Positions 40,018 to 58,513 are shown, numbered from the stretch's first letter. The stretch: DNA of 64,000 bases from Nitrospirota bacterium (GCA_963796125.1 CAWCKM010000022.1:7269-71268), one strand, 5' to 3'. Numbers and translations are program-made. Notes: generated by a model not told the origin, from the letters alone.

Positions 40018-40338
40018 TCAATATAACACATCATTTTCAAACAACTTAGCAATAAGTTCCCTGTGATAAGGGATGGTGAAGATACCTTTCTTTCTCATCA
40101 AAACATAATAGTCATCCAGGGAAAAACTGTTTTCAAATTTCTTCAGTGTTGTGCGATATGTTATATAAGACATGCTGAGGATTTCATCGGCAAGAAATAT
40201 GAAGGCTGTCTTGTCAGGGGTGATGCTCCCCGGGCCTTCTTTTTCCAGTCTATCCAAAAAGTTTTGCAGATCAAGATAATCATATTCATTTTCTGATATA
40301 AAAGCCTGATTCAATTTCGGACGGTCTGTCTGGTACAT
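40018..40338 (-). CDS. Hypothetical 106-aa protein, overlapping the 3-prime end of the B12-rSAM gene
   Basis: The ORF overlaps the upstream gene by 53 nt as drawn; a later TTG start is possible. No recognisable family. Confidence 0.4.
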   Translation of the reverse strand: MYQTDRPKLNQAFISENEYDYLDLQNFLDRLEKEGPGSITPDKTAFIFLADEILSMSYITYRTTLKKFENSFSLDDYYVLMRKKGIFTIPYHRELIAKLFENDVLY

Positions 40339-41995
40339 GCTTTTGTATGGTTGTAGGTTTTCGCTGACACATGGCCTTCTTAATGCTGAAACACGTCAGA
40401 TCCTCAATAAAGGGAATCCTGAAAAGATAGGATTCATTTTTCATGGTATGGAGCTTCAGGAAATTGAGCAACTCATACTTGTCGAGGGATGCAAATACGT
40501 TTCCGGGCCTGTTTGTATATTCTTCTGTAACAATCTCTTCAATCAGGTCTACCAACAGATTGCCCAGACAATGAATCATGATATGAAACATCTCGTGGAA
40601 GTTATTACCGAGCATCTTGAATATTTCTATCAGGAGTTCACACCTGAAGACGTCTTTTTCAGACAAAGTTTCCGGTATGTAGATAAAGAAATTATTTACA
40701 GGGAAACTGTATGTCTCCTGTGCCCGGATTCTCCTTGCAGATGATATAAGCGTATCAAAATCTTTCGGGTGGTCAACATACTTTTCCCAGTAAAGGCTTG
40801 CTATATCAGTTGACAGGTGGTCGTAATGTACTCGTGCATTTGTCATATTGTGCACGAATAAGTCATGTTGCAAGCGGAAGATGCCGGCGATCTCTTTCTT
40901 CATCTCCGGGTAGGTCTTCAGGGCGTCATGGTATCGGCTGAAAAAGATCGAAACCTTTACGTTGTCTTCCAGGGACCGGTGAATGAGGGAGGTGTTTTCC
41001 CTGAGTTCCTGTATGGAATAAGCAACGCTTTGATTTTTTATTTTCTTTCGGGCTTCATCGTCAAAGACTTCCGGTGAAAGTTCAAAGAGTGGTTTTATGT
41101 CTCTGTCAAAGACGAAAAGATGTTTGTAAAGGTTCAGAAATTCATTATCCGGTAATTGCCAGGCCCCATAGTTTAACTGGAAGGTTTTGATCAGGTCTTT
41201 TTCTCCGAGCATCGCTTCGAATAGTGACTTTATGTAACTCCTGTTATTCTCATAGCATATGTATATCTTTTTCGTAACATCCTTAATCCGTTTCAAATCA
41301 GCAATGACTGAGGCGACACTTCTTAGTACAGAATTTCCTCTTTTGCTATGCAGTGTGAATGACCTCCTGCTGCCCCCGCAATAGGCACAGTTAAATTCAC
41401 ATCCCCGTCCTATAAAGACAGGAAACCCAAGCTTTTCCTCAATTGCCTTTACATACAGTTCATAATCATAAAGATATGTCAAATCACTGAACGATATCTG
41501 TGAGAGGGTCTCTTCGTCAATGAGATAAGAGGTTCCGTTTGAATGAATCTCTGCACTGTCCCTGTAAATCAAATTCGGAATCTCAGAGGGATCTGCACCC
41601 CTGAGGAGAAGTTCCAGAGGCTTTTCAGGATCACCTTTTACAACATAGTCGATAAAACGGCATTTTTGAAGAAGGTTTTCCCCAAAATACCCGGCGGTAA
41701 AGCCGCCACTGATAATTTTCAGATGATTGTAACGGGCCTTTATGTATTCACTAACCCAGAGAGCCCCTTCTGCTGTTTCCTGCCAGTGGAAAATAAGGCC
41801 GATATGGGTAGGTTGAAACTGGTTCAGGTATTCTTCAAGGATAGGTTCTGTATCTGTATTATCGTAGAGGGATAAATTTATGATTTTTACCGGAATGTTT
41901 TTCTGGCCGAGGTAGTCACAGACGCCAAAGGTCCCCATGGGAACATACATAAAATATTCACTCGGACAATTAATAAATAACAGTCGTGATTGCAT
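40286..41995 (-). CDS. B12-binding (class B) radical SAM protein with about 250-aa uncharacterised C-terminal extension
   Basis: N-terminal cobalamin-binding-like domain (LKIISGGFTAGYF...DYVVKGDPEKPLELLL), then GRGCEFNCAYCGG, a CxxxCxxC motif. Confidence 0.85.
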   Translation of the reverse strand: MQSRLLFINCPSEYFMYVPMGTFGVCDYLGQKNIPVKIINLSLYDNTDTEPILEEYLNQFQPTHIGLIFHWQETAEGALWVSEYIKARYNHLKIISGGFTAGYFGENLLQKCRFIDYVVKGDPEKPLELLLRGADPSEIPNLIYRDSAEIHSNGTSYLIDEETLSQISFSDLTYLYDYELYVKAIEEKLGFPVFIGRGCEFNCAYCGGSRRSFTLHSKRGNSVLRSVASVIADLKRIKDVTKKIYICYENNRSYIKSLFEAMLGEKDLIKTFQLNYGAWQLPDNEFLNLYKHLFVFDRDIKPLFELSPEVFDDEARKKIKNQSVAYSIQELRENTSLIHRSLEDNVKVSIFFSRYHDALKTYPEMKKEIAGIFRLQHDLFVHNMTNARVHYDHLSTDIASLYWEKYVDHPKDFDTLISSARRIRAQETYSFPVNNFFIYIPETLSEKDVFRCELLIEIFKMLGNNFHEMFHIMIHCLGNLLVDLIEEIVTEEYTNRPGNVFASLDKYELLNFLKLHTMKNESYLFRIPFIEDLTCFSIKKAMCQRKPTTIQKHVPDRPSEIESGFYIRK

Positions 41996-42523: not shown

Positions 42524-42777
42524 TTGCAATAACTATCATCAAATACTTTTCAATAAGTATGGCATAATAAAACTGCGAATTATTAACAGTTAACAGTCTC
42601 ATAATTATAAAGACATAGATGATCCCCCTCACCCTTGCCCTCTCCCTCCGAGGGAGAGGGGATTATAGTGATTCCTCCCCCTTGAGGGTCGCCTCAGGCG
42701 ACTCGCGGGAGGGGGAGGGTTGGGAGAGGGTGAAATGTCAATACTATTTTGAGACCGTAAATAATCAGGAGGGTCTT

Positions 42778-43371
42778 ATGAAACTCTTAAGGATGAGCTT
42801 TGCTCTGTTTTTTATTTTGTTACTCAGTTTTCCCGCTCTTGCAGAAATAAAGCAGAAAACATTTACAAAGGAGGAGATTAAGAAGATGGCTGAAACGAGA
42901 GCTGTTATCGAGACAAAGTTCGGGAACATCGAACTGAAGTTTTTCCCTGATGTTGCACCAGGTCATGTAAACAATTTCATTGAACTCGCAAAAAAGGGAT
43001 TTTATGATGGAACAACCTTCCATCGGGTAATCCCGGGCTTTATGATTCAGGGCGGAGACCCTAACTCAAAAGATCCCGATAAATCAAAACATGGCATGGG
43101 TGGGCCCGGTTATACAATCAAGGCTGAATTTAATGAGAAACCTCATAAAAAGGGAACCCTTTCCATGGCAAGGGCTGCACATCCGGACAGCGCTGGTTCC
43201 CAGTTCTTCATCTGTGTTGCTGACGCGCCTTTCCTGGACAGGCAATACACAGTTTTCGGAGAGGTCGTTTCAGGCATGGACGTAGCAGACAAAATTGTGA
43301 ATCAGTCAAGAGACAAGAGCGATAATCCCCTTGAAAGGGTGGAGATGAAGGTTAAGGTTATCGGGAAATAG
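42778..43371 (+). CDS. ppiB: Secreted cyclophilin-type peptidyl-prolyl cis-trans isomerase
   Basis: Signal peptide MKLLRMSFALFFILLLSFPALA, then FHRVIPGFMIQGGDP and GTLSMARA...SAGSQFFI. ATG 42778 with AGGAGG RBS is preferred. The upstream part of the ORF-track call is repeat sequence. Confidence 0.9.
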   Translation: MKLLRMSFALFFILLLSFPALAEIKQKTFTKEEIKKMAETRAVIETKFGNIELKFFPDVAPGHVNNFIELAKKGFYDGTTFHRVIPGFMIQGGDPNSKDPDKSKHGMGGPGYTIKAEFNEKPHKKGTLSMARAAHPDSAGSQFFICVADAPFLDRQYTVFGEVVSGMDVADKIVNQSRDKSDNPLERVEMKVKVIGK

Positions 43372-43386
43372 CAGGAACAAGCCTTA

Positions 43387-44625
43387 TCAGTCCCGGGTTA
43401 GCCGGAAAGATTTACACAACATAATGGCTTCCTCCGTGAATTTCCAGGCTATTTCTTTATCCCTGATTACCGAGAGGACTTCATCGGAATAGATGCTTGC
43501 CGTGTACCAGTTATAAGACTCGGTGATAACTGTCTGATTATCAAAGACAGCAAATTTGTGGTGTAAGGGAGAATATATGTTTTCCCGGTAGTAAACAAAA
43601 GAAATCTCCATCCATGCGTCCTTCAGACGCTGGATGGGTTCCTTCAATGGCCTCCGGAAATCCTTGTCCCACGCTTCTGGCAGCAGCCCGCTATGGGCGA
43701 TCATTCCATTTAAAATGATTTTTACTCTCACACCCCTGTTCCTTGCATTAATTAGGGCGGATATTACATCTGTTTCATAGTTTTTATAACGACCGGTAAG
43801 ATAGTCCATGTCGAACATGACAACGATTATCGAATATTGCGCATTATTTATTTCTGAGATAATGGCGTCCTGCGGTCTGAAGGAATCACCTGACGGCGTC
43901 AGATGACTTCCAAAGCTGTAGTAGAGGTTGTAGCGGCTTTGTGGTTCAACATGGAGTGTCTGTATTGCTCCACCCTTTATAGCATTATATATATTTGAAT
44001 AAAGGAGAGCAAAATCCGCGGAATAATAAACGAGTGCGTTTTCCCAATTACCACCCCAGAGATGAAAATGAAGGTTATAGGAGCTGGAATGAACTATTTC
44101 TCCGTCAAAGATGATGAACTTCGTGTGCATGCTCGCAATCCCTTCTGACGGATTACCCGGAGTGTTACGAACCACACCGTAGACAGGAATGCCTGCACGT
44201 CTCAGCTTCGCAACATTTTCTGTGCAATTCATAGAGCTTACCGATGCCCAGTCGGCAACACAGTCTACCTCGATGCCGTTTTTCAGTGCATATATGAGAT
44301 GTTCAGCGACATGATAATAATCGAAATCAAAGATTGCCATATGGATAAAATGCCTGCTTCGCGGATTATTCTTTTTCCTTTCTATCACCCAGTCGATATG
44401 TCTATGGATTTCGTGGATGGGATGAGCCGGATCCCATGTATTACCCCGTGTAAAAAAGGGGCGAACAGGGAGGTCATTGTATTCATTATTGATTCTTACC
44501 AGGGCGCGCTGGGTTTTTCCCGGATCAAGTTCGCAAGTGCGGTATCGATTCTCTGTCTTGAACGAGGGGTCGTGAAAGTCATCGGGGTCAATCCGGCACT
44601 CTGTGAAATTCATCGAGAGTAGCAA
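43387..44625 (-). CDS. Phospholipase D superfamily protein with two HKD motifs
   Basis: HTKFIIFDGEIVHSSSYN and HHKFAVFDNQTVITESYN. The start is TTG at 44625 or ATG at 44613. Confidence 0.85.
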   Translation of the reverse strand: MLLSMNFTECRIDPDDFHDPSFKTENRYRTCELDPGKTQRALVRINNEYNDLPVRPFFTRGNTWDPAHPIHEIHRHIDWVIERKKNNPRSRHFIHMAIFDFDYYHVAEHLIYALKNGIEVDCVADWASVSSMNCTENVAKLRRAGIPVYGVVRNTPGNPSEGIASMHTKFIIFDGEIVHSSSYNLHFHLWGGNWENALVYYSADFALLYSNIYNAIKGGAIQTLHVEPQSRYNLYYSFGSHLTPSGDSFRPQDAIISEINNAQYSIIVVMFDMDYLTGRYKNYETDVISALINARNRGVRVKIILNGMIAHSGLLPEAWDKDFRRPLKEPIQRLKDAWMEISFVYYRENIYSPLHHKFAVFDNQTVITESYNWYTASIYSDEVLSVIRDKEIAWKFTEEAIMLCKSFRLTRD

Positions 44626-45007
44626 ATTTGTAGTCGTACCGGGATGGAATCGACCTGCCAGCCTTGTGGATGATGTAGGAGAAGGTTATATATTTTATGC
44701 GTCCGTGGGAGCTCTCGTAGGGGAAAAGAGGAAGCTGATGCGTTTGCCATTTCTGCCAGTTATCGCCCCATTCACCGCAATAATACGTGTCAATGATGAA
44801 AACTTCGCATATGCCCTCTTCCCGGTATACTTTCAGGACTACCTTTAATGCCTTTTTATCTGAATAGTTATAGAAGGAAAAACCTATTCCACCGGGGTAG
44901 TTTGAGATCTGCCAGTTCTGCATATTCGATACGATATGTCTTTCCCCGATCCATTTATATGAGGGAAGGGCGAAATCCTCGGCAACAAACTCTTTTCTGT
45001 TTCTCAC
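44588..45007 (-). CDS. Hypothetical 139-aa protein, operon partner of the Fic and PLD genes
   Basis: Intact ORF. Its ATGA start overlaps the Fic stop (45004-45007) and its 3-prime end overlaps the PLD start. No family is recognised. Confidence 0.5.
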   Translation of the reverse strand: MRNRKEFVAEDFALPSYKWIGERHIVSNMQNWQISNYPGGIGFSFYNYSDKKALKVVLKVYREEGICEVFIIDTYYCGEWGDNWQKWQTHQLPLFPYESSHGRIKYITFSYIIHKAGRSIPSRYDYKFATLDEFHRVPD

Positions 45008-46620
45008 TTTTCTATTCTGTACGAGTAATTTAACCCCTTATTATTAAATAGTCTTCCGCCCTCAGGAGAAACGACACAACAGTTTAAATAAGTATAATCG
45101 TAATGGGTATCCTCGAGTTCTACGATAAAATCAATATCAAATACCCTTGAGCCCGGAATGTCAGAATGTATCTCCTTTATGGAGAAATCATTTGTAAGAC
45201 TGAAAACATGCTCCCATTGATCCTGTCTTTTGTGGGAAAAACCACAATGGACGGTCATACCATACAGGGAATATTCATCGGGAAAGACCACTCTGCATTG
45301 ATCCCTGTATTCCCAGCTTAACGGATTGCTGTCATGCATGAGGTAGGCCTGAAAAGCCACTTCCAACTTCCTTCCATCATCAATCTGTCTGAAATGGAAT
45401 CCACAGTCAAAGGAGACGTTATAGATATGTTTATCGAAGAGGCCTGCAGTTTTCAGTTTCTCCCTTTCATAAAAATAAAGGTCTACTGCCTTCATGATCC
45501 TTGTCTTGATATATTCGTGCATATCTTCCATACTGCCTCCGTAACGGGGCAGTGCAAATACTTCCTCTTCGTATTTGAAACTGAGGGGTGGTATCCCCTT
45601 TTTGAGAAACAGGTAATTTAAAAAGCATCTGCCGACTCTTCCGTTTGAATCGCGGAACGGATGTATACCGAGGAACATGTAATATGATCTGGACAGATTG
45701 TAAATGAAGGCATCAAGATCATGAAAGCTCTGACCGGTCTCCCGCAGGACATGCGATAGGTCGCTTATCTCTCTCTGAAAATTGTTAAAATCGAAGGTTA
45801 CGCCGTTCTTGTCAGGGAAATCAAAGGTCCTGAAATTGCCTGCATCAGGGTCGATGTCTTTCGACAGAACGCAATGAATCCTTTTCAGCATGTCAATGCC
45901 TATGTGGGTAAAGGTATGGAGATTCGAAAATATTTCCCGGCATATGGCGAGCAGGTTTCTCGTGCCGGTAAGTTTTAAATCCCTGGGCGAAAGAAGGTTG
46001 TGATATCCCATACAGCCCTTTGTCAAGGTCATGGATGAGTTTCCCAAATTTAAAAACAACCTCTGAAAAATGGCGGTATTTGTCGGCCACGGGGTTTTCC
46101 TCATGACCTGAAAATAGCGGTTCAGGTTCACAGCCGGTGGATATCCGGCCTTTGGAATATTCTTATGAGGAGGTCTCTTAAGCTTTTTACATAACCCGGT
46201 GATAATGTAATCCGAATTCCCTGAGTCGATGGCTTCCTGAGGAAGACGTATAATCCTTTTAACAGAGGGTATATGTTTTTTAAATCTTTCCCGGAGCAGC
46301 CACGAGAGATGTTCGGCATATTCATTTTTTACTGATACCAGTGCCCCGTAAAGATCCCTGTTGACCCCATAACCACGGTACCCCAAAGAATCTATGACGA
46401 ATTGCCTTTTCTGTATCTCGGTGATTGTACGCTGATAGAGTTCTTTGTTACGGTGCCACTTCTTGTAAAAATTAAGGAGGGTTACGGTATCCCGTGCAGT
46501 CTGAAGTTCCAGTTCTCCGAGTTCGCGAGATACGTTTTGGAACCTCTTTCTGATGGACTCCATAAGGGTATAACATCGGTGATCCCATTGGAAGACGAGG
46601 ACAAAATAGCCAGGATACAT
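45004..46620 (-). CDS. Fic-domain protein with large N- and C-terminal extensions
   Basis: Fic motif HPFRDSNGRVGR (HxFx[DE][GAS]N[GK]RxxR). 538 aa; the start may be the internal MESIRK. Confidence 0.8.
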   Translation of the reverse strand: MYPGYFVLVFQWDHRCYTLMESIRKRFQNVSRELGELELQTARDTVTLLNFYKKWHRNKELYQRTITEIQKRQFVIDSLGYRGYGVNRDLYGALVSVKNEYAEHLSWLLRERFKKHIPSVKRIIRLPQEAIDSGNSDYIITGLCKKLKRPPHKNIPKAGYPPAVNLNRYFQVMRKTPWPTNTAIFQRLFLNLGNSSMTLTKGCMGYHNLLSPRDLKLTGTRNLLAICREIFSNLHTFTHIGIDMLKRIHCVLSKDIDPDAGNFRTFDFPDKNGVTFDFNNFQREISDLSHVLRETGQSFHDLDAFIYNLSRSYYMFLGIHPFRDSNGRVGRCFLNYLFLKKGIPPLSFKYEEEVFALPRYGGSMEDMHEYIKTRIMKAVDLYFYEREKLKTAGLFDKHIYNVSFDCGFHFRQIDDGRKLEVAFQAYLMHDSNPLSWEYRDQCRVVFPDEYSLYGMTVHCGFSHKRQDQWEHVFSLTNDFSIKEIHSDIPGSRVFDIDFIVELEDTHYDYTYLNCCVVSPEGGRLFNNKGLNYSYRIEK

Positions 46621-46627
46621 GGATTCA

Positions 46628-48142
46628 CTAACCCGGTCTTTTTATTTCAATCGTTGCAAAGACACCTATATGATCACTCAGGTCAGGATCCTTGAGGATC
46701 AACTCCGCTGAAATGAAATTCACGTCCCCTTTTATCATGATATAGTCGATGCGCTTATGGGGATTTGAGGAATCAAAGGTATTACCTCCTGAGGCGTGAA
46801 GATTCCGAAAAGCATCTTTGAATCCTTTTTTTCTCAAGAAAATCATGGCGGGTGAATCTTCCACATCATTAAAGTCCCCAACCACAACGTAACAATAACC
46901 CTGCTTCTTTTCGAATAACCGATCAAGCTCCCTTAACAATTTTTCAGCCTGTGCAAGCCTGATCTTCTGATCTTCATGATCAAGGTGTACATTTACGAAA
47001 ATAATCTTCTGTTCATATATTTCCACCTCGGATGCTATTGCATATCTTTGAAGGCGAGGGACAGGTCCATCGAGGCCATGGGTCAAATCTATTCTCTGGG
47101 GATTTTTGAGGTCGTGTCTTGCCAATATAGAAAGACCCTCAGGAAACTTGTCCATAAAGAGATGTAAGAAAACGTAGTGTGTACGATAAAAATATCCTGT
47201 CATACGCGACATCCACTCAGCTACCCGGGCACCGGTATTTTCGGGACCATCGCTGCCGATCACTTCCTGAAAGGCACCAAGATGGGGATCAAAGTTACTG
47301 AGTTCTTTTGCGATACGTCTGAATCTCAACCCATTGTTTGTATGGGTTCCGTGAAGATTATAGGTAAAGATACGGATGACCTGAGGATGAATCGAGCGAA
47401 ATCTCTGAAAATCATCATCTGTGAGTATCCCGGTTACCCCGAATTGAGAAAACCTGTCATGAAGTCTCAGGATATATTCTGGAAGGGCATTGTACTGTCT
47501 CGAGATTGTCTGAAGGGGTGTGCCTGACCTGAGCAAACGGATCATTTCGAGCCTTCTTATTATCGGATCATCCTTATTCAGGTTATCGAACCAGTTTCTG
47601 ACGCCGGAGTCCGGTAAAATGCCGGGAATGCCATTCAATGAAAATGAAGCATTTAATCTGTAAGGGTATTCAATATCCCTGTTGAATTGTTGAGCGACCT
47701 TTTCAGGAGGAACACCGATCCTCAAGAGGCGTATCATCTCGAGTCGTCGTAACGTCTCATCTTGACTATCAAGAACATCAAGCCATTTTTCGGCAGTAAA
47801 TTCCCTGCTGAAATCTGTTTTAAGGAATCCTTCCTTCATCCACAGACTGACAAGTTTGTCTGAGAGTGGCTGCTCTTGTGTCATCAGTTTTTTCAACTGA
47901 AAGCGTAGGGCGGCAAGAGAATCCTCTTTATAGGGGTTTTTTGCCGCCTCGAGAAATGCCTCCTTAAGGAACGGCTTTTTATCAATCTCTGGTTTAATAA
48001 TATCCCATGCCGTCTTAGCTATTTCCCAGGCATAAAGACTACTTCCTTCGTCATGGGAATCCCCGTCTCCCTCTAATAGGCGGGATAGGAAAGGTATGAG
48101 GAGAGTGACAAGGACTGAACTCGATAAAGAAATATTATCCAT
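46628..48142 (-). CDS. Endonuclease/exonuclease/phosphatase (EEP) family protein with two tandem HTH-like N-terminal repeats
   Basis: The EEP blocks are IFTYNLHG, FQEV, VVVGDFND, RIDYIM and LSDHIG. Upstream are duplicated RRLEMIRLLR(I/S)G(V/T)P...(L)NGIPGIL/FGVTGIL units resembling transposase-type HTH domains. RBS GGAGGA. Confidence 0.8.
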   Translation of the reverse strand: MDNISLSSSVLVTLLIPFLSRLLEGDGDSHDEGSSLYAWEIAKTAWDIIKPEIDKKPFLKEAFLEAAKNPYKEDSLAALRFQLKKLMTQEQPLSDKLVSLWMKEGFLKTDFSREFTAEKWLDVLDSQDETLRRLEMIRLLRIGVPPEKVAQQFNRDIEYPYRLNASFSLNGIPGILPDSGVRNWFDNLNKDDPIIRRLEMIRLLRSGTPLQTISRQYNALPEYILRLHDRFSQFGVTGILTDDDFQRFRSIHPQVIRIFTYNLHGTHTNNGLRFRRIAKELSNFDPHLGAFQEVIGSDGPENTGARVAEWMSRMTGYFYRTHYVFLHLFMDKFPEGLSILARHDLKNPQRIDLTHGLDGPVPRLQRYAIASEVEIYEQKIIFVNVHLDHEDQKIRLAQAEKLLRELDRLFEKKQGYCYVVVGDFNDVEDSPAMIFLRKKGFKDAFRNLHASGGNTFDSSNPHKRIDYIMIKGDVNFISAELILKDPDLSDHIGVFATIEIKRPG

Positions 48143-48198
48143 TCCACATTTTCCTCCTAAAGGTTATCAGAAGGTTTCTTTTAGAGTCAATTCTTGTG

Positions 48199-50410
48199 CT
48201 ATATTTCAGGTTTGAATATTAAGACAGATAAAGGAGGAAGAACGATATTTATAGAATACGGTCTTCCCTGCCAGGGTATTTCCTCTGAATGTACTCCGCC
48301 GGCATTGCCCAGATTACTTCCCCAGTATATTTGGGAATCGCTGTTCAGTAGTCTCTTTATAGAAACAGTGTTCAGGAACGCCAATTCGGTATCCCATTCT
48401 CGGAACGGGTGTAAAATTACAGACAATCACAAGAAAGTCCGCAGGATTCTTTGCTTTTCTTATGAAGGAAATTACACTATGGTCAGAATCGCGAAAGTCT
48501 ATCCATTCGAAACCCTCGTAACTGAAATCCACCTCATAAAGAGCAGGCTCAGATCGATAAAGATAGTTGAGGTCCATAACATATTTTTGCAGACTACCTG
48601 TGTGGCCTGAATTTCAGGAGGTGCCAGTCGAGACTCTTATCGTGATTCCATTCGTCCCATTGTCCGAATTCTCCACCCATAAAGAGGAGTTTTTTCCCGG
48701 GGTGACTGTACATATAACCATAGAGAAGTCTCAGGTTTGCAAACTTCTGCCACATATCTCCGGGCATCTTGTTAAGCATTGAACGTTTACCATGAACAAC
48801 TTCATCATGTGAAAAGGGCAGGACAAAATTTTCTGTAAATGCATAAAGGAGACTAAAGGTAATATTATTGTGATGATACTTCCTGTGTACGGGTTCCTTT
48901 GACATGTATTCAAGCATATCATGCATCCAGCCCATATTCCATTTCAGACTGAAACCGAGACCGCCAAGGTATGTTGGTCTTGAAACACTCGGCCATGCTG
49001 TCGATTCCTCAGCAATGGTAAGTATCGCCGGGATGATAGTGGTGAGACAATCTCGTTTAAATTTCTTGAGGAAATATATGGCCTCAAGGTTTTCCCTTCC
49101 GCCAAATACATTTGGTATCCATTCACCCTCTTTTCGTGAGTAATCAAGATAGAGCATTGATGCAACGGCATCTACGCGCAAACCGTCAATGTGGTACTTT
49201 TCAAACCAGAAGAGGGCATTTGATATGAGGAAGTTTCTCACCTCATTCCTTCCGTAATTGAATATTTTTGTTCCCCAGTCAGGATGAAATCCTTTCTTTG
49301 GATCCGTATGTTCGAAAAGGCATGTGCCATCAAAATAGCCGAGTCCATGTGCATCGGCTGGAAAGTGCGCAGGCGCCCAATCAAGAATGACCCCTATGTT
49401 GTTCTGATGACATTTATCTACAAAGTACATAAAATCTTCCGGTGTACCATGCCTGCTCGTTGGAGCAAAATATCCAATTGTCTGGTAGCCCCATGACGCA
49501 TCAAGGGGATGTTCAGTTACAGGAAGAAGTTCTATATGGGTATAACCCATGCCTTTTACATAACCTACGAGCCTGTCTGCGATCTCTCTGTACGTCAGGA
49601 ATCTGTTGCCTTCTTCAGGTACCCTCATCCAGGAGCCGAGATGAACTTCGTAGATAGAGACAGGGGATTCAAGCCAGTTCTTTTTCGAACGCATCTCCAT
49701 CCATTTTTTGTCATTCCATTTATACCTGTTTATGTCATAGACGATCGATGCACTCTTCGGCCGCACTTCAAAATAAAAGGCGTAGGGGTCTGCCTTAGGA
49801 GCAATATATTTTTTGGACCTCGATTTAATTTCAAATTTATAAATTTCTCCTTCTTGAAGACCGGGGATGAATATCTCCCATATTCCTGAATGATCCGAGC
49901 ACACGCATCTGATGTCTTCTTCCATCCCAGTTATTGAAGTCTCCGATAACGCTGACGCGTTTTGCATTGGGTGCCCATACAGCAAAGTGAACACCTTTTA
50001 TGCCGTTTATGGTCATGATGTGTGCACCGAGCTTTTCATAGTTTTTGTAATGCCTTCCTTCACCTATAAGGTGGAGGTCAAAGTCAGAAAGCACAGGCAG
50101 AAAGCAATAGGGGTCATAAAATTCAGATATCTTTCCTTCATGAGATTTAATCTTGAGAGAATAAGGGAAGACCCTTTTTTTGTCGATTATTGTCTGGAAG
50201 AAACCGGCATCATGGATTTTTTCCATTGGATAGGATTTCTTTTTTTCCATGTCTACTACCCATGCTTCCTGGGCCTCCGGAAGAAAGGCACGCACCGCTG
50301 TCCTTCTTGTTCTCTCCATCAATAATATGCATGCCGAGAACCTGAAACGGGTCCCAGTGATTAGCATTCACAATGTGCTTTATGTGTTCTTTCAGTTCTT
50401 TTCCGGTCAT
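48199..50410 (-). CDS. glgB: 1,4-alpha-glucan branching enzyme GlgB (GH13); at least 4 apparent frameshifts
   Basis: N-terminal [10 protein letters not shown]. The core ORF 48594-49994 has [44 protein letters not shown] and [12 protein letters not shown]. The C-terminus lies in ORFs 48314-48577 and 48199-48426. Confidence 0.85.
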
Positions 50411-51299: not shown

Positions 51300-53479
51300 T
51301 CATTGCCACATCATGGCTTCAAAATCAGGTGTCGGAACAGTAAAGGAAATAAATCCCCTCCATGGACATCTTTCTACTTCTTCACCATTCTTGATGACAC
51401 AAATAAAAATGTTTATTTCATCTCCTTCATGTGCATGCACCATGTTGAAGGGTATTTTTATCTCAAAGATGTCCTGAATTGCAAAATCGGTAATCTCCTT
51501 TGTTTTTCTCCAGACATCGCCATCCTTCTCAAAAAATTCTGCTTTTGAGGATAGGGGTTTCATAGGGACGATAATATTACATAGTGAAGGCTTGAGGATG
51601 AGAATGGAAAATTTCGTATCATCAGGGAACTCGCTGACAGGTATTGCGGTGTCAATACGCAGGAAGAAATTATCCTTATTAAAACCATAAAAAAGTCTTG
51701 ACAACATGCTTTCTGCCCTGTGCATGCTGCCTCCGGTTTTCTTAACATCTATATAAGCGCCCTGATACCATTCGTAATAGCTTGTTACAATGCCGTCGAT
51801 CTTAGGGTCGATAAAACCTCTGATGGTGATTATCGGAGAAATGCCCCTGTCTTCTCTCGGAATCGGGACAAAGAGATGCTGTGGAATTTCCTTTCCCATC
51901 TCTTTATAAACCTTCACAAGATTTAATCTGAATAGTTCATCAAAATCATTCTGTGTCTCTGTTGTGTGTTCATCGCCATACCACCAGTTCCAGTCACTGC
52001 CTTCTGCAACATATATCGATTTCCATGCTTCTGAAATGTTTTTTGAAGGGTTCATTTTCTGAAAGACCTCAAGGTCTTCTCTTGTCTCTGTAAGGTAATC
52101 CCATGCCCTGTTGTCCTCATCGTGACCTATCCAAACCCTGAAGTTTGCATTGATCCATGACCCGGCATGAAGTCTGGGAAGAGGTTCACCCCTGCCATAT
52201 GTACTCAAATATTCTGAGACCGTGACTGGTCTTTAGTCGCTCTTCCCGGGAGAGACCTTCATAGAGATAATGCAGGAAGTCATGACCGTCGTTTTCATAG
52301 TGTTCCCAGGCATTCTCTCCGTCGAGTATGATTGTCAGGAGATGTGGTTTTTCCCTGGACACGGAAGCCTGGGCATGGAGGAATCTGCTGATGAGATCTC
52401 CGGCTGCTTTTTTTGAATCCCATCCTGAATAAACAAAACCGATAAGGTCTGAAAGTTGATGGTCTCTGAAAACGATTGATACATTCTCGAAGGTATGAGG
52501 TTTGTAAAGAATCTCAGGTTCAATGACATTGCCTGGCGCATCCCTGAACCCTTTCCTCAGGGAATTTGACAGGATTTCTTCATCGGTTCCAATCCACTGT
52601 ATTCCTTCTTTGCTTATAATCCTCAGGACTTCTTCACTGACTGAGCCCTCTGAAGGCCACATTCCGGAGGGGCGGTAACCGAAAAGCCCCTCAAAATAAT
52701 CCAGCCCCATCCTGATCTGTTTTTCAGCGTCTTCAGGATGGGAAAATCTCCTCAGGGGAAGTTTTGTATCCGGCATGGCAATTTTTGCGGAATTCGTGTC
52801 GCAGAGCAGAGGAAGTATCGGGTGATAGAACGGTGAGAGGGAGATTTCAATCTGTCCTTTTCCTGCCATCTCTTTATATCCGGGTATTATTTCTCTCAGG
52901 ATCGAGAGTTGCTTCGAGACGAGGAGATGCTTATCTTCCTCTGAATAATCACGTCCTTTTGCAACGAGTGACCTGATGAGAAGGTCTTTTTCTCTCAGCA
53001 GGGGGTCTATCCAGCAGAGGTTGAAGAGAACCTGAAGGTCAAGAAAATCACCGGCGCTGAAATATCTGGTCGTTCTTCCGATGTCACCTTTAACAAGGCG
53101 TAACCCTCTCTTTATGAGGAGCTCGTAGTATCTCGGGAATGGTTTTATCATAGTGTCCCAGTTAGCGAGGAAAAAATTTTCGAGGATGAATGCCTTTTCG
53201 TCTTCATTCAGATCTGACGCCTTCCTGAGGGTAATCACAAGATGTCTGTCAGCAGCGTTCTTATCTGTATAACCCTGAATCTGCTCAAGGAGAGAAGGGA
53301 CAAGATTAAACGTCTGTTTGATATCCGGAAATTCTCTTGAGGATATCTACCATGTCGAGGTAGTCTTTTGTACCATGGAGCCTTACCCATGGGAGCCTGT
53401 ATATGCCGGTCATAGGGTCTCTGTAGAAGGGCTGGTGCATGTGCCAGAGAAAGGCAATGTAAAGCGGTCTATCTGTCAT
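51300..53479 (-). CDS. Glycoside hydrolase family 57 alpha-glucan enzyme (amylase/4-alpha-glucanotransferase-like); about 2 apparent frameshifts
   Basis: N-terminal [21 protein letters not shown]...[12 protein letters not shown] from ATG 53479, then ORFs 52186-53238 and 51300-52208 with [27 protein letters not shown] and [11 protein letters not shown]. Confidence 0.85.
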
Positions 53480-55902: not shown

Positions 55903-58513
55903 TCATGCGCTTTTCTTTTTTGTCAAGGAAATAGAATATGAGTCAACCTTTTTTTTCAACTCAATAAGTTTTTCGAGCGCCTCTTCGGGTTTCAGCGCCG
56001 TAATATCAAGGTTCATGATTTCTGATACGATTGAGTCAGGCATGGAAGAAAAAAGGTCGAGCTGGACAGTGCTCCTTTTTGTTTTCCTGTGCGCAAATTT
56101 CGGGCTTCCCGTCACATCAAGCTCCTCTTTTTCTAAGTTGGCCAGAACCTCTTTTGACCTGTTTATGATAATTTCAGAGATGCCGGCTAAGCGTGCGACC
56201 TGGATTCCGTAACTCTTGTCTGATGGTCCTTTTTCTATCTTCCTGAGAAAAATGATCTCGTCACCCCACTCTTTCACAGATACATTATAGTTTTTTACCC
56301 CGTTGTGGGTAAGACTGAGTTCCGTGAGCTCATTGTAATGTGTTGCAAAGAGAGTCCTTGCCTGTATATCGTTCAGAATATATTCTGCAACTGCCCATGC
56401 AATGCTGATACCGTCAAAGGTGCTTGTGCCTCTCCCAACTTCATCAAGGAGTATGAGACTTTTTCCCGTTGCATTATGGGTGATATTTGCCACTTCTATC
56501 ATTTCTACCATGAAAGTGCTCTGACCTTTCGTAAGAAAATCCGATGCCCCGATCCTTGTGAATATTCTGTCGGCAATACCGATTCTCGCATCAGAGGCCG
56601 GAACGAAACTGCCGATCTGTGCCATGAGGACAATGAGAGCGACCTGTCTCATGTAAGTGGATTTCCCTGCCATATTCGGTCCCGTAATAATGAGAAGCCG
56701 GTTATCTTCTGTATCGATATACGTGCTGTTGGGTATGAACTTTTCATCTGATGAAATTCTTTCGAGGACCGGATGTCTCCCCTCGGTAATCTCTATAACA
56801 CCTGATTCATCAACTACAGGTTTTACATAGGTATATCGTTTAGCTGTAACAGCAAGAGAGGAGAGGAAATCAATGATGGCTATGGCATGGGCTGTTTTTG
56901 ACAAAAGGGATGACTCTTTACTGACTTCGTCAAGTATTTTCTGGAAGATTTGGTATTCCAGATTTTTCAGCTTCTCTTCTGCGCCGAGTATTTTGCTCTC
57001 GTATTCCTTGAGTTCAGGCGTTATGAACCTCTCTCCACCCACGAGGGTCTGTTTCCGTATGTAATCGTCAGGAACCATATGGAGGTTTGCTTTTGTTACC
57101 TCAATATAGTATCCAAAGACTCTGTTATACCCAACCCGCAGGGAAGATATGCCTGTTCTGTTTTTTTCTTTCAGCTCCAGTTCTGAAAGGAAACCCTTTC
57201 CTTTCGAGGATATCTTTCTGAGGTCGTCTACTTCAATGCTGTATCCGTCCCTGATAATGCCTCCTTCACGCAGGCTTACCGGAGGATTATCAATAATCCC
57301 TTTCTCTATGAGTTTTCTCAGGTCTGAGAATTCCGAGATATTTTCTGAGATTAATCGTACGTGGAGGTTTTTGGAAACACTGAGAGACTTCCTGATTTTC
57401 GGAAGGTTTGTAAGGGAATGTTTGATCCCGATAAGGTCTCTTGCGTGTTGCACTTTTGAAAACAACCCTTGAAGAGAGCCTTTCGATGTCCTGTATTTTT
57501 CGCAGAGATGTCCTGAGCTCTTCAAGCAGTTCATAGTCCTCTATAAGATATTCAACTGCATCCTGCCTCTTTTTTATTTCTTCTCTGTCAATAAGCGGTT
57601 TTAAGAGTGAGGCTCTCAGGAACCTTCCTCCCATCGGGGTGAGCGTTTCGTCGAGAACCCAGAGGAGGGTGCCTTCAGATGAACCGTCCTTGAGGGTATG
57701 GGTAAGTTCAAGATTCCGCTGTGTTGCTGCATCGAGAAACATGTATGAGTCCTGCCTCAGGGTACTTATCTTTCTGAGAATGAATGTCTCTTTCTGAGTA
57801 TCCTCAAGATAGCTGACGAGGGCTCCTGCAGCAGAGATTGCAGCAACCATACCGTCACATCCATAGCCCTCAAGGGAAGAGACCTTCAGATGACGCAAGA
57901 GGGTCTTATATGCATCGGCATAATCGAAATACCAATCTTCATGAAAAGATGTAAAGAATGTATTCAGCGCTTCTTTATAATGGATATTATCCCTGAGACT
58001 CTGGGGCATCAGAATCTCTCTCGGTTCGAACCGGTACAGTTCATCCTCGATATTTTCAGATGTCTCATAGAGGATGAACTCACCTGTCGAGATATCTGCA
58101 ACTGCTATACCGTGTTGATCAGCTGAAGGAAAGATGCTTATGATGTAAGTGTTTTCCTTGGGATTTTCCGGTGTGTGTGTTCCGGGTGTAATTACTTTGA
58201 TGACATCCCTGTGAACAATGCCTTTTGCTTCCCTGGGGTCCTCCAACTGCTCGCAAATAGCCACCTTGTATCCTGCCTTAATGAGTTTAGAAATATAAGA
58301 TTCTGAAGCAAAGTAAGGGACGCCGCACATGGGTATCGGCTCTTCTTTTGATTTTTCTCTTGTTGTGAGCGCTATCTGAAGAATCTTCGATGCTGTTTCT
58401 GCATCCTCTCCGAACATTTCGTAAAAGTCACCGAGTCTGAAGAGAAGGATGGCGTCTTTGTGTTTTTCTTTGACGCTGAAGTATTGTTTCATCAACGGTG
58501 TCAACTCTGTCAT
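55903..58513 (-). CDS. mutS: DNA mismatch repair protein MutS; apparent frameshift near 57445
   Basis: N-terminal TPLMKQYF..K....DAILLFRLGDFYEMF (ORF 57290-58513). The C-terminal ORF 55903-57534 has the Walker A GPNMAGKST and the LLDEVGRGTST and THY motifs. Confidence 0.95.

Follow-up and report, generated by a model that had tools for sequence, protein, structure and literature searches.

The stretch of DNA analysed here (the window; 64,000 nucleotides from a Nitrospirota bacterium, GCA_963796125.1 CAWCKM010000022.1:7269-71268) carries an operon of three genes, which in order code for a putative EEP phosphoesterase, a Fic transferase and a two-HKD PLD-type phosphodiesterase/transferase (Table 1). 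CBM21-type domains and a recurring adjacency to branching-enzyme genes suggest that these proteins are an undescribed enzyme set at the bacterial glycogen particle. We give an even chance to the reading that CBM21-type modules anchor the three proteins to the alpha-glucan (glycogen) particle of the cell, where they would act together with branching enzyme.

Table 1. Features of the EEP-Fic-PLD locus (window positions)
Feature	Position	Strand	Basis or remark
GH57 glycoside hydrolase, further upstream; 2 frame breaks	51306..53413	-	Same searches as glgB
glgB (GH13 alpha-1,4-glucan branching enzyme), upstream, probable functional partner; 4 frame breaks	48199..50410	-	Pfam, tblastn
Shine-Dalgarno AGGAGGA, 9 nt 5' of EEP ATG	48152..48158	-	Direct reading
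Gene 1: 504-aa Mg-dependent phosphoesterase of the EEP family, with a helical N-terminal region and two HTH-like repeats	46628..48142	-	Pfam
EEP N-terminal region, residues 1-129; conserved start L-x3-L-x3-L-x-PFLP	47756..48142	-	Alignment A9
HTH-like repeat 1 (TLRRLEMIRLLRIGVPPEKVAQQF...)	47615..47755	-	Weaker of two HTH_23 stretches
HTH-like repeat 2 (IRRLEMIRLLRSGTPLQTISRQY...)	47414..47560	-	Pfam HTH_23
EEP catalytic domain	46643..47386	-	Invariant catalytic residues; solved structures
Gene 2: 538-aa Fic-domain protein, made up of N-terminal region, Fic core and C-terminal beta-sandwich	45004..46620	-	Pfam
Family-specific motif LGYRGYGVN, Fic N-terminal region	46360..46386	-	Invariant, alignment A1
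Fic active-site motif HPFRDSNGRVGR	45628..45663	-	Alignment
Fic C-terminal beta-sandwich, ends in FNNKGLNYSYRIEK; possibly CBM21-derived	45007..45480	-	AF2, Foldseek
Gene 3: PLD-superfamily protein; CBM21-like N-domain and two HKD domains	43387..45007	-	539 codons without base 44598
PLD N-terminal domain (the former "139-aa unknown"), CBM21-like starch/glycogen-binding fold	44599..45007	-	AF2 and Foldseek
Extra base (T, minus strand), PLD frame broken	44598..44598	-	Comparison with L056 and orthologues
HKD motif 1 (HTKFIIFDGEIVHSSSYN)	44074..44127	-	H, K, S, N nearly invariant in alignment A8
HKD motif 2 (HHKFAVFDNQTVITESYN)	43510..43563	-	H, K, D, S, N nearly invariant in alignment A8

Gene count and reading frames

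Four minus-strand ORFs are found, as a preliminary description of this DNA had listed them, at 46628-48142 (504 aa), 45004-46620 (538 aa), 44588-45007 (139 aa) and 43387-44625 (412 aa). However, what was described as an intact four-gene operon is really three genes, in which the 139-aa and 412-aa ORFs make up one PLD gene. The two ORFs align to residues 3-134 and 138-537 of one 537-aa orthologue, and every other genome examined codes for PLD in one uninterrupted ORF (535-551 aa). An extra T at position 44598 is the only gap over 2,429 nt compared with the independent contig L056 (98.3% identical), and three orthologues are also without it. When this base is deleted in silico, a clean 539-codon ORF is obtained, with the mended junction FHRGRIDPDDFHD the same as in the intact protein P0127. 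We infer that the one-base break was introduced in sequencing or assembly, or else arose very recently in the genome, and is no designed feature. The 26-38 nt overlap at 44588-44625, formerly taken as translational coupling, is the frameshift itself, because the 139-aa and 412-aa ORFs form one PLD gene. The module was also said to be unbroken beside broken neighbours; in fact PLD is broken as well as glgB (4 breaks), the GH57 gene (2) and mutS (at least 1), and the module is not spared.

The 7-nt gap between EEP and Fic (46621-46627) is present. The Fic/PLD overlap at 45004-45007 is present too, but its sequence is GTGA (with a GTG start) and not ATGA. The ribosome-binding site noticed before the first gene can be read from the sequence as AGGAGGA at 48152-48158. 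Only about 56 nt lie between the glgB stop and the EEP start, and no promoter-like site was found on the minus strand of this interval.

Domains and catalytic residues of the three proteins

The first protein belongs to the EEP family by its profile (Pfam Exo_endo_phos, 7.8e-15; 55.6 bits vs cutoff 24.5; HTH_23 is matched as well) and by its catalytic set (N, E, an H/D pair, GDxN, D and SDH), and N262, E293, H386, D388, D423, N425, D466, D490 and H491 are invariant in 20 sequences. The nearest solved structures are 3teb (1e-19), the glycan mannosyl-6-phosphatase 4c1r (2e-6), and TDP2 and nocturnin (about 3e-6). Its N-terminal region is missing from the short EEPs of three loci (L038, L043, L049). 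The two RRLEMIRLLR repeats pointed out earlier are indeed located in this protein; the second reaches 29.2 bits against HTH_23 (cutoff 24.6, with the N-terminal fragment as query), with R196 and R197 invariant. EEPs of the Eremiobacterota clade have no HTH region, and CBM21 stands in its place in L050 and L051. HTH-like repeats where distant relatives have CBM21 hint at DNA binding or regulation over glucan binding in the window clade.

These two HTH_23-like repeats could also speak for processing of DNA ends or protein-DNA adducts, in which DNA ends would be cleaned by an HTH-EEP (APE/TDP2-like) together with a TDP1/Nuc-like PLD, and the target of Fic would be a topoisomerase or a repair factor. 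EEP matches TDP2, PLD matches Nuc, NucT and Zucchini, and an Mfd, SMC or PDDEXK_1 protein is found beside some loci, with mutS about 8 kb from the module in the window. We consider such a role very unlikely, as the repair neighbours are lineage-specific, the HTH region is missing or gives way to CBM21 in the relatives mentioned above, and both the CBM21 fold of PLD and the branching-enzyme linkage would be left unexplained.

The second protein is a Fic/Fido member (PF02661; 1.9e-9, 38.7 bits vs cutoff 24), whose full-length family comprises about 120 clusters at 43-93% identity; its motif LGYRGYGVN was one of the patterns used in the locus scan. The active site HxFx(D/E)GNGRxxR is present as HPFRDSNGRVGR; across 14-47 sequences H320, F322, D324, N326, G327 and R328 are invariant, position 6 varies among S, G and A, and the final residue is either R or K. 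In the three proteins of 17 genomes, no conserved occurrence of the inhibitory (S/T)xxxE(G/N) was found, and no small adjacent antitoxin gene is left after the 139-aa ORF is merged into PLD. With no helix in cis and no antitoxin, this Fic falls outside the auto-inhibited classes I-III and the FicT-FicA type. Its C-terminal domain was modelled at an AF2 pLDDT of 91.8, and the top Foldseek match is the CBM21 of PPP1R3B, which is weak (E 2.5e-3, TM 0.37) and followed by generic Ig folds. For the C-terminal WDNNxGxNY-type signature of CBM21, NNxGxNY is present where the domain ends; true CBM21 copies have this motif too, and the window translated in all six frames shows it a single time; hhalign against CBM21 aligned the motif alone (E=0.18, non-significant). 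On this modelled fold, the domain is possibly CBM21-derived.

The third protein contains two PLDc_2 stretches (PF13091, 1.8e-36) and both HKD motifs, defined as two HxK(x)4D(x)6(G/S)SxN motifs making one active site; all the Fic and PLD catalytic motifs given in the preliminary description (HPFRDSNGRVGR, HTKFIIFDGEIVHSSSYN, HHKFAVFDNQTVITESYN) are where it placed them. For the N-terminal domain (AF2 pLDDT 92.6), 8 of the 9 top Foldseek matches against PDB are CBM21 (prob 1.00, TM 0.50-0.59 for the best), including PPP1R3B, PTG with beta-cyclodextrin and the Rhizopus glucoamylase SBD. There is no Pfam match to CBM21 (PF03370) even at E<=10, and neither hmmsearch against PDB nor hhalign with four true copies of CBM21 gave a significant match; the predicted structure is a CBM21 fold, assigned at fold level only. 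The domain is confined to this PLD family (18 matches among 1.84e9 representatives).

Among proteins of solved structure, those closest to PLD are nucleases (Nuc, Zucchini, NucT), and homologues are named [quoted passage not shown] in databases. Remodelling of phospholipid head groups, in which PLD would be the transphosphatidylase, EEP would resemble sphingomyelinase/PLC and Fic would transfer phosphocholine as AnkX does, would fit such cardiolipin-type names and the weak NCBIfam matches to cardiolipin synthase and AnkX. This is highly improbable: the NCBIfam scores are far under the family cutoffs (TIGR04265, 28.6 bits vs 290; ClsB, 15.7 vs 281), lipid or envelope genes do not recur nearby, membrane-spanning segments are not evident by eye, and the PLD profile is nearest to the soluble Nuc/Zucchini type. 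The lipid part of the alternative offered earlier is therefore unsupported, but its other part, a phosphodiester remodelling pathway, goes in the right direction if placed at alpha-glucan (glycogen).

Conservation and genomic neighbourhood

At 33 of 42 species-level loci, EEP, Fic and PLD are contiguous and co-oriented; contig ends cut most of the remaining loci. The hosts are Nitrospirota, Syntrophorhabdales-type Desulfobacterota and Myxococcota, and also Eremiobacterota-type MAGs; for example, the same trio is found in L001, L003, L005, L049, L052 and L053. EEP orthologues lie directly upstream of Fic at every locus examined, and Fic never occurs apart from EEP and only rarely apart from PLD. 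The Myxococcota have Fic and PLD joined in one protein; L037 and L042 carry such fusion ORFs (1,079 and 1,088 codons), and L035 has a Fic-PLD fusion too. From the above, the expected synteny exists, but as a trio, and the catalytic residues are invariant or nearly so in the Fic, PLD and EEP alignments. For all three genes dN/dS is 0.05-0.41 in five species pairs, indicating purifying selection, which agrees with vertical descent by lineage.

Distant relatives such as L050 and L051 are PLD-EEP pairs that have no Fic. The L050 PLD is 37% identical to the window-type PLD over 491 aa, and its EEP contains two copies of Pfam CBM_21 (E 4e-12, 46.8 bits vs cutoff 28.9); an unmarked CBM_21 match is found in the EEP of L051, where the gene order is reversed. 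CBM_21 is absent from the window's own EEP.

Upstream of the module, glgB contains GlgB_N, CBM_48 and Alpha-amylase, with tblastn pieces in frames -1/-2/-3/-1/-2, and the order GH57-dtd-glgB-EEP-Fic-PLD is common to the window and L001. Branching enzyme, with 10 of 133 flanking ORFs, is the only neighbour recurring across phyla; it is of the GH13 GlgB or the non-homologous GH57 type and is placed in at least five different ways. On the strand of the module, GH13 GlgB precedes it in the window, L001 and L041 and follows it in L007 and L008; in 9 Syntrophorhabdales-type loci GlgB comes after the module and is convergent with it. The GH57 type lies downstream in L031, again convergent, and in L049, L052 and L053 it is immediately upstream and overlaps the start of EEP. 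About two-thirds of the loci have no branching-enzyme gene within 7 kb, and no glgA, glgC or glgP was seen among the flanking ORFs.

The same surroundings bear on the toxin, abortive-infection or defence module first proposed for this locus, in which Fic would be the toxin, PLD and EEP nucleases the effectors and the HTH repeats the sensing or regulatory part. We judge it quite unlikely. No small gene for immunity or an antitoxin exists, since the supposed 139-aa partner is a PLD domain; the flanks are mainly variable housekeeping genes and not defence islands, and no full-length homologues were found on plasmids or phages. Strong purifying selection, conservation by lineage, CBM21 modules and branching-enzyme linkage argue against it too. 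What favours defence is the patchy distribution across phyla, which suggests horizontal transfer, together with the variable flanks, a Fic free of the auto-inhibitory helix, a PLD closest to nucleases, and an AAA_21 ATPase or type I methyltransferases adjoining a few loci. PADLOC gives domain-level matches (PDC-S04/SoFic for Fic, DrmC for PLD) but none at system level: Fic-core or HKD-core stretches alone match SoFic, PDC-S04, DISARM and Mokosh, no Drm or Mko partner genes were found, and neighbour matches are mostly SMC or FtsH ATPases. With no description of an EEP-Fic-PLD module found in the literature either, the earlier view that the locus corresponds to no named system stands.

A proposed glycogen-particle function and the closest known systems

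In a glycogen-bound module, Fic, with its canonical NMP-transferase motif and no inhibitory glutamate helix, would attach a nucleotide-derived group, most likely AMP, through a phosphodiester to a hydroxyl at the particle. The acceptor could be a glycogen-bound enzyme, e.g. branching enzyme, or the glucan itself. PLD and EEP would transfer, trim or remove phosphoester groups, and such a write/edit/erase cycle may tune glycogen structure or turnover. Since Fic-less PLD-EEP pairs exist, PLD and EEP would also need a Fic-independent phosphoester substrate at the particle. The EEP-fold glycan phosphatase 4c1r is a chemical precedent. Against the glycogen reading counts the CBM21 assignment in the window's own domains, which is at fold level only (Pfam, PDB-sequence and hhalign comparisons non-significant). 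The weak Fic C-domain fold match, the HTH-like repeats of the window-clade EEP, the nuclease-like PLD relatives, the many loci with no branching-enzyme gene in reach and the lack of glgA, glgC or glgP in the flanks are on that side as well.

Signalling by protein AMPylation would do without glycogen: Fic would modify a cytoplasmic protein, and EEP and PLD, as phosphodiesterases, would take the modification off again; the beta-sandwich domains would serve for contacts with other proteins, and the branching-enzyme genes would be neighbours by inherited chance. The EEP profile touches TDP2, an enzyme that cuts Tyr-5'-phosphodiester bonds, which in chemical terms are equivalent to Tyr-AMP; the Fic motif has the canonical form, the window's own proteins give no sequence-level CBM21 signal, and most loci have no branching-enzyme gene near. 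Even so, we think this unlikely in view of CBM_21 on the EEP of two related PLD-EEP pairs (L050, L051), the dominance of CBM21 in the fold matches of the PLD N-domain, the PLD-EEP pairs without a Fic writer, and the two non-homologous branching-enzyme families that adjoin the module in at least five arrangements across phyla.

For the glycogen reading, the closest analogy is the glucan phosphorylation/dephosphorylation cycle of plants and animals (GWD/PWD; SEX4, LSF2, laforin), where phosphoester enzymes are CBM-tethered to alpha-glucan, as proposed here, and likewise act with branching and debranching machinery; its eraser phosphatase bears a CBM, like the CBM21-EEP of L050 and L051. However, that cycle uses PPDK-like dikinases and dual-specificity phosphatases with CBM20/45/48, whereas the present module is bacterial, with Fic, HKD-PLD and EEP, CBM21 and a predicted glucan activity. 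No DSP (CX5R) domain was found in the three proteins, and the likeness to laforin/SEX4 is a functional analogy only. The PPP1R3 subunits (PTG, GL, GM), the best structural matches of the PLD N-domain, bring a protein-modifying enzyme to the glycogen particle by CBM21, and the same role may apply here by analogy. In PPP1R3 the CBM21 belongs to a scaffold that is separate from the Ser/Thr phosphatase it serves, whereas the module's CBM21-type domain is fused to PLD (probably also to Fic, and to EEP in relatives) and has no sequence similarity to PPP1R3.

The enzymes themselves also have known counterparts. Fic AMP-transferases (class I toxins FicT/VbhT with antitoxins, the single-gene defence protein SoFic, FICD, AnkX) have in common with the module Fic the core and HxFx(D/E)(G/A/S)NGRxx(R/K), and its best solved matches are the 8wt0 Fic, FICD, AnkX and VbhT; the module Fic differs in its length (about 540 aa), a unique 240-aa N-region with the invariant LGYRGYGVN and the C-terminal beta-sandwich, and it has neither an (S/T)xxxE(G/N) helix in cis nor a small antitoxin gene. 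HKD motifs are common to PLD and to Nuc, NucT, Zucchini/MitoPLD and DISARM DrmC, its closest sequence relatives, but PLD carries two HKD halves in a 539-aa chain plus the CBM21-like N-domain, is without DISARM partner genes, and has all equivalog scores far under cutoff. EEP-fold enzymes (Bacteroides mannosyl-6-phosphatase BT3783, PDB 4c1r; TDP2) have the fold and the metal-binding/catalytic residues in common with the module EEP and offer precedents for phosphate removal from polysaccharide or cleavage of Tyr-5'-nucleotide diesters; the module EEP is distant from them (E about 1e-6, partial) and bears a 250-aa N-terminal extension with the two HTH-like repeats.

Gene content of the module and the split PLD gene

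The preliminary description read this locus as an intact four-gene toxin/defence operon, and the four minus-strand ORFs are found exactly where it placed them (Table), together with all catalytic motifs it quoted, the ribosome-binding site (AGGAGGA, 48152-48158) and the 7-nt gap between the EEP phosphoesterase and Fic genes. The Fic/PLD overlap reported as ATGA is actually GTGA, and the start codon is GTG. The 139-aa ORF, taken as a separate fourth gene, has no Pfam match and represents residues 1-136 of the PLD gene, cut by a one-base frame break. In relatives, the PLD protein has 535-551 aa and the module consists of three genes. One 537-aa orthologue covers both ORFs of the window, the 139-aa ORF matching its residues 3-134 and the 412-aa ORF its residues 138-537, and DNA alignment with three orthologues places one extra base in the window. 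Over 2,429 nt, the independent contig L056 matches the window at 98.3% identity, and the sole gap is an extra T (minus strand) at window position 44598. Deleting base 44598 yields a 539-codon PLD ORF, whose junction, FHRGRIDPDDFHD, is identical in the intact homologue P0127 (98-99% identity). Because the repaired gene shows a dN/dS of 0.10 against L056, the frame lesion is either an error or very recent.

A stand-alone partner or immunity protein is ruled out, since orthologues, P0127 and L056 all assign the 139-aa ORF to the PLD gene. A programmed or recurrent split is ruled out as well: the break in L055 lies elsewhere, L054 (a MAG at ~3x coverage) has no PLD body after a 136-aa CBM21-like ORF, and the others carry one ORF. 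As a practical lesson, a single-base frame break can produce a spurious “orphan partner gene”.

The module was also thought to be spared while its neighbours are broken. This view is not tenable, because the window is full of frame breaks (four in glgB, two in the GH57 gene and at least one in mutS) and the PLD gene is among the broken ones. The broken housekeeping genes suggest an indel-prone assembly rather than gene decay. In the same window, the PPIase ORF has an odd low-complexity leader (PLTLALSLRGRGDYSDSSPL...GEGW) before the signal-peptide-like MKLLRMSFALFF; a Met further on is probably its true start, and a translated repeat element may account for the leader.

Coordinates of features in the window and in the compared loci
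Locus	Position	Strand or frame	Feature
Window	40286-41995		B12-binding radical-SAM gene
Window	42619-42780		PPIase ORF, leader
Window	43387-44625	minus	Two-HKD PLD protein, ORF as read (Pfam)
Window	44588-45007	minus	139-aa ORF
Window	44599-45007		PLD N-terminal domain (PLD-N)
Window	45004-46620	minus	Fic protein (Pfam)
Window	45007-45480		Fic C-terminal beta-sandwich (Fic-C)
Window	46628-48142	minus	EEP phosphoesterase with HTH_23-like region (Pfam)
Window	48199-50410	-1/-2/-3/-1/-2	glgB in five pieces
Window	51306-53413		GH57 gene in three pieces
Window	55903-58513		mutS, two overlapping ORFs
L020	10426-12307		AAA_21 ATPase and 209-aa ORF
L021	5966-6893; 8627-9689		Insertions in the module
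L041	7001-8511		Internally deleted Fic
L049	553-1923		B12-binding radical-SAM gene
L049	2152-9623		DUF4912, GH57 branching enzyme, short EEP, long Fic, PLD
L050	6496-9605		Fic-less PLD-EEP pair, two CBM_21 modules at the EEP N-terminus
L051	7001-10177		As L050
L052	589-8626		Five-gene cluster as in L049
L053	561-8626		Five-gene cluster as in L049
L054	1039-1449		136-aa CBM21-like ORF

Conservation and genomic context of the trio

In a scan of 185,579 species genomes, 42 module loci were found, in Magnetobacteriaceae-type Nitrospirota, Syntrophorhabdales or “delta” MAGs and Myxococcales; PLD relatives also occur in Eremiobacterota-type MAGs, which widens the range. The full-length family to which the module's Fic belongs comprises about 120 clusters. 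Synteny is conserved, with the trio contiguous and co-oriented in 33 loci; the remaining nine include six cut by contig ends, two with a short EEP and Fic only (L038, L043) and one decayed (L041). Purifying selection acts on each of the three genes (dN/dS 0.05-0.41, leaving out the window/L056 row for the Fic C-terminus, a mis-framed slice), and the catalytic residues of EEP, Fic and PLD are all invariant. The canonical Fic inhibitory motif (S/T)xxxE(G/N) is not conserved in the module, which rules out canonical auto-inhibition.

In Myxococcales MAGs (L035, L037, L042), Fic and PLD form a single ORF of about 1,080-1,095 codons, in which the Fic C-domain runs straight into the CBM21-like PLD N-domain, and this fusion argues that the two proteins act together physically. 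Distant PLD relatives (37% identity) have a partner EEP and no Fic; for example, L050 and L051 carry such pairs in opposite gene order. The Eremiobacterota-type clade (L049, L052, L053) has a conserved five-gene cluster with an EEP of 258-297 aa, a Fic of 642-673 aa and a DUF4912 gene, a family with essentially no mention in the literature.

Some loci are irregular. L021 contains a HicA/HicB toxin-antitoxin cassette between EEP and Fic and two function-unknown ORFs (168 and 188 aa) between Fic and PLD, with the three module genes intact. In L041, no PLD precedes the PPIase gene. The odd or decayed copies in L041 and L054 come from low-coverage or co-assembled MAGs. One database entry, a 543-aa PLD homologue (P0237, 39% identity), is assigned to a eukaryotic transcriptome assembly, which may reflect contamination or transfer.

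The proposed defence role found no backing in the PADLOC search, which gave domain-level matches only; those among the neighbours are SMC, FtsH or ABC ATPases and two type I methyltransferases, so a known defence system is ruled out. Nor is the setting a defence island: the flanks are housekeeping genes (chorismate synthase, PlsX, FtsH, Mfd, SMC, chemoreceptors, radical-SAM enzymes), and defence genes are only sporadic. In Ca. Magnetobacterium (L019, L020), the module is followed by a 415-aa AAA_21 ATPase and a 209-aa ORF, which together recall small defence or TA-type ATPase systems. A phage or plasmid origin is rejected, as no full-length match was found on plasmids or phages and PHROGs returned only Fic-core and HKD-core families of unknown function. 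The alternative of a phospholipid head-group or phosphodiester remodelling pathway fares no better in its lipid part, since lipid or envelope genes are not recurrent neighbours and the scores against cardiolipin synthase fall far short of the cutoff. The nearest solved relatives are Fic/FICD/AnkX/VbhT for Fic, uncharacterised EEPs, glycan mannosyl-6-phosphatase, TDP2 and nocturnin for EEP, and Zucchini, Nuc and NucT for PLD.

CBM21-type domains and branching-enzyme neighbours

Eight of the nine top PDB matches of the PLD-N model (pLDDT 92.6) are CBM21 modules, a type that binds starch or glycogen, with probability 1.00 and TM up to 0.59, including PPP1R3B, PTG with beta-cyclodextrin and Rhizopus glucoamylase. 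The top fold match of Fic-C is also CBM21, weakly (TM 0.37), and Fic-C ends in NNxGxNY, a signature that also closes bona fide CBM21 copies and occurs once in the six-frame translation of the window. At sequence level, the window's own PLD-N and Fic-C gave no CBM21 match in Pfam (E<=10) or in an hmmsearch of PDB, and when hhalign compared them with first one and then four true CBM21 copies, only NNxGxNY was aligned (E=0.18). No homology between PLD-N and Fic-C was found by hhalign, and the occurrence of PLD-N in other protein contexts is ruled out, the lone outlier (P0258, a GH35 protein, E 2e-4) looking spurious. Pfam detects two CBM_21 copies in the L050 EEP (46.8 bits, cutoff 28.9) and CBM_21 in the L051 EEP. 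The HTH-like repeats of the window-type EEP sit where these EEPs have their two CBM21 copies, and are absent from EEPs of the Eremiobacterota clade.

An alpha-glucan branching enzyme (BE) is the sole neighbour recurring across phyla. In the window, L001 and L041 it is GH13 GlgB, encoded upstream on the same strand; GlgB is also found downstream on the same strand in L007 and L008, and downstream and convergent in nine Syntrophorhabdales-type loci. The GH57 BE, which is not homologous to GlgB, is located downstream in L031; in L049, L052 and L053 its gene comes directly upstream and overlaps the start of the EEP gene. Two-thirds of module loci have no BE gene nearby. Five independent placements are very unlikely to arise by chance, on our own rough estimate that one or two BE genes per genome would fall within 7 kb in <1% of cases per independent placement. 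In the window, co-transcription of glgB and the EEP gene is plausible, as they are separated by about 56 nt without a promoter-like site. A B12-binding radical-SAM gene also recurs near the module (in the window and L049, and upstream in L023, L024, L039, L040 and L045), which may be chance, as such anaerobes have very many members of this family.

A putative role at the glycogen particle

CBM21-type folds, Pfam CBM_21 on Fic-less EEPs and the recurring BE neighbour are three independent lines that suggest a link of the module to alpha-glucan. From the PLD-N fold, the CBM_21 modules of related EEPs and BE adjacency, we give even chances to the reading as a whole, that the module is targeted to glycogen. 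A cytoplasmic phosphoester module would then be tethered to the glycogen particle. Fic has a canonical NMP-transfer motif and no inhibitory helix, and would attach a nucleotide-derived phosphodiester to a hydroxyl there, either on a glycogen-bound enzyme, e.g. branching enzyme, or on the glucan itself. PLD would act through a covalent phospho-histidine and EEP by metal-dependent hydrolysis, and the two could transfer, trim or erase the groups attached by Fic; they must also have a Fic-independent substrate, because PLD-EEP pairs exist without Fic. The HTH-like repeats may serve autoregulation of the operon or protein contacts.

It is rather improbable, in our judgement, that the Fic substrate is the glucan itself, with AMP or another nucleotide-derived phospho-group placed on glycogen glucose hydroxyls and CBM21-tethered PLD and EEP converting or removing the phosphodiesters. 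If so, bacteria would have a glucan-phosphoester cycle whose enzyme families are unrelated to GWD, SEX4 and laforin, and a glycan would be the first non-protein substrate of any Fic enzyme.

In plants and animals, covalent modification at the glycogen particle is familiar from starch phosphorylation, from laforin and its role in Lafora disease, and from the targeting of PP1 through CBM21 subunits; to our knowledge, it is essentially missing from current accounts of prokaryotic alpha-glucan metabolism. In the literature we found neither the EEP-Fic-PLD trio described nor a Fic, PLD or EEP that carries CBM21, nor such a layer in prokaryotic glycogen metabolism, and a comprehensive 2024 review of prokaryotic alpha-glucan metabolism mentions neither CBM21, AMPylation, PLD nor glucan phosphatase. 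The parts belong to known families. The closest analogies, laforin/SEX4/GWD and PP1-PTG, are functional and not homologous; by such analogy the module would fall among the CBM-tethered enzymes that handle phosphoesters in glucan metabolism, and should the glucan itself prove to be modified, it would be new in kind. From a conserved Fic/PLD/EEP operon with CBM21-type modules, placed beside BE genes in four phyla, bacterial glycogen biology would gain a new regulatory or chemical layer, and Fic and HKD enzymes a new cellular arena. Three soluble proteins and commercial glycogen would be enough to test the glycogen idea directly. The bacterial Fic-PLD linkage has a curious parallel, possibly by analogy only, in humans, where the Fic enzyme FICD AMPylates PLD3, an exonuclease of the PLD family (PMC12494813).
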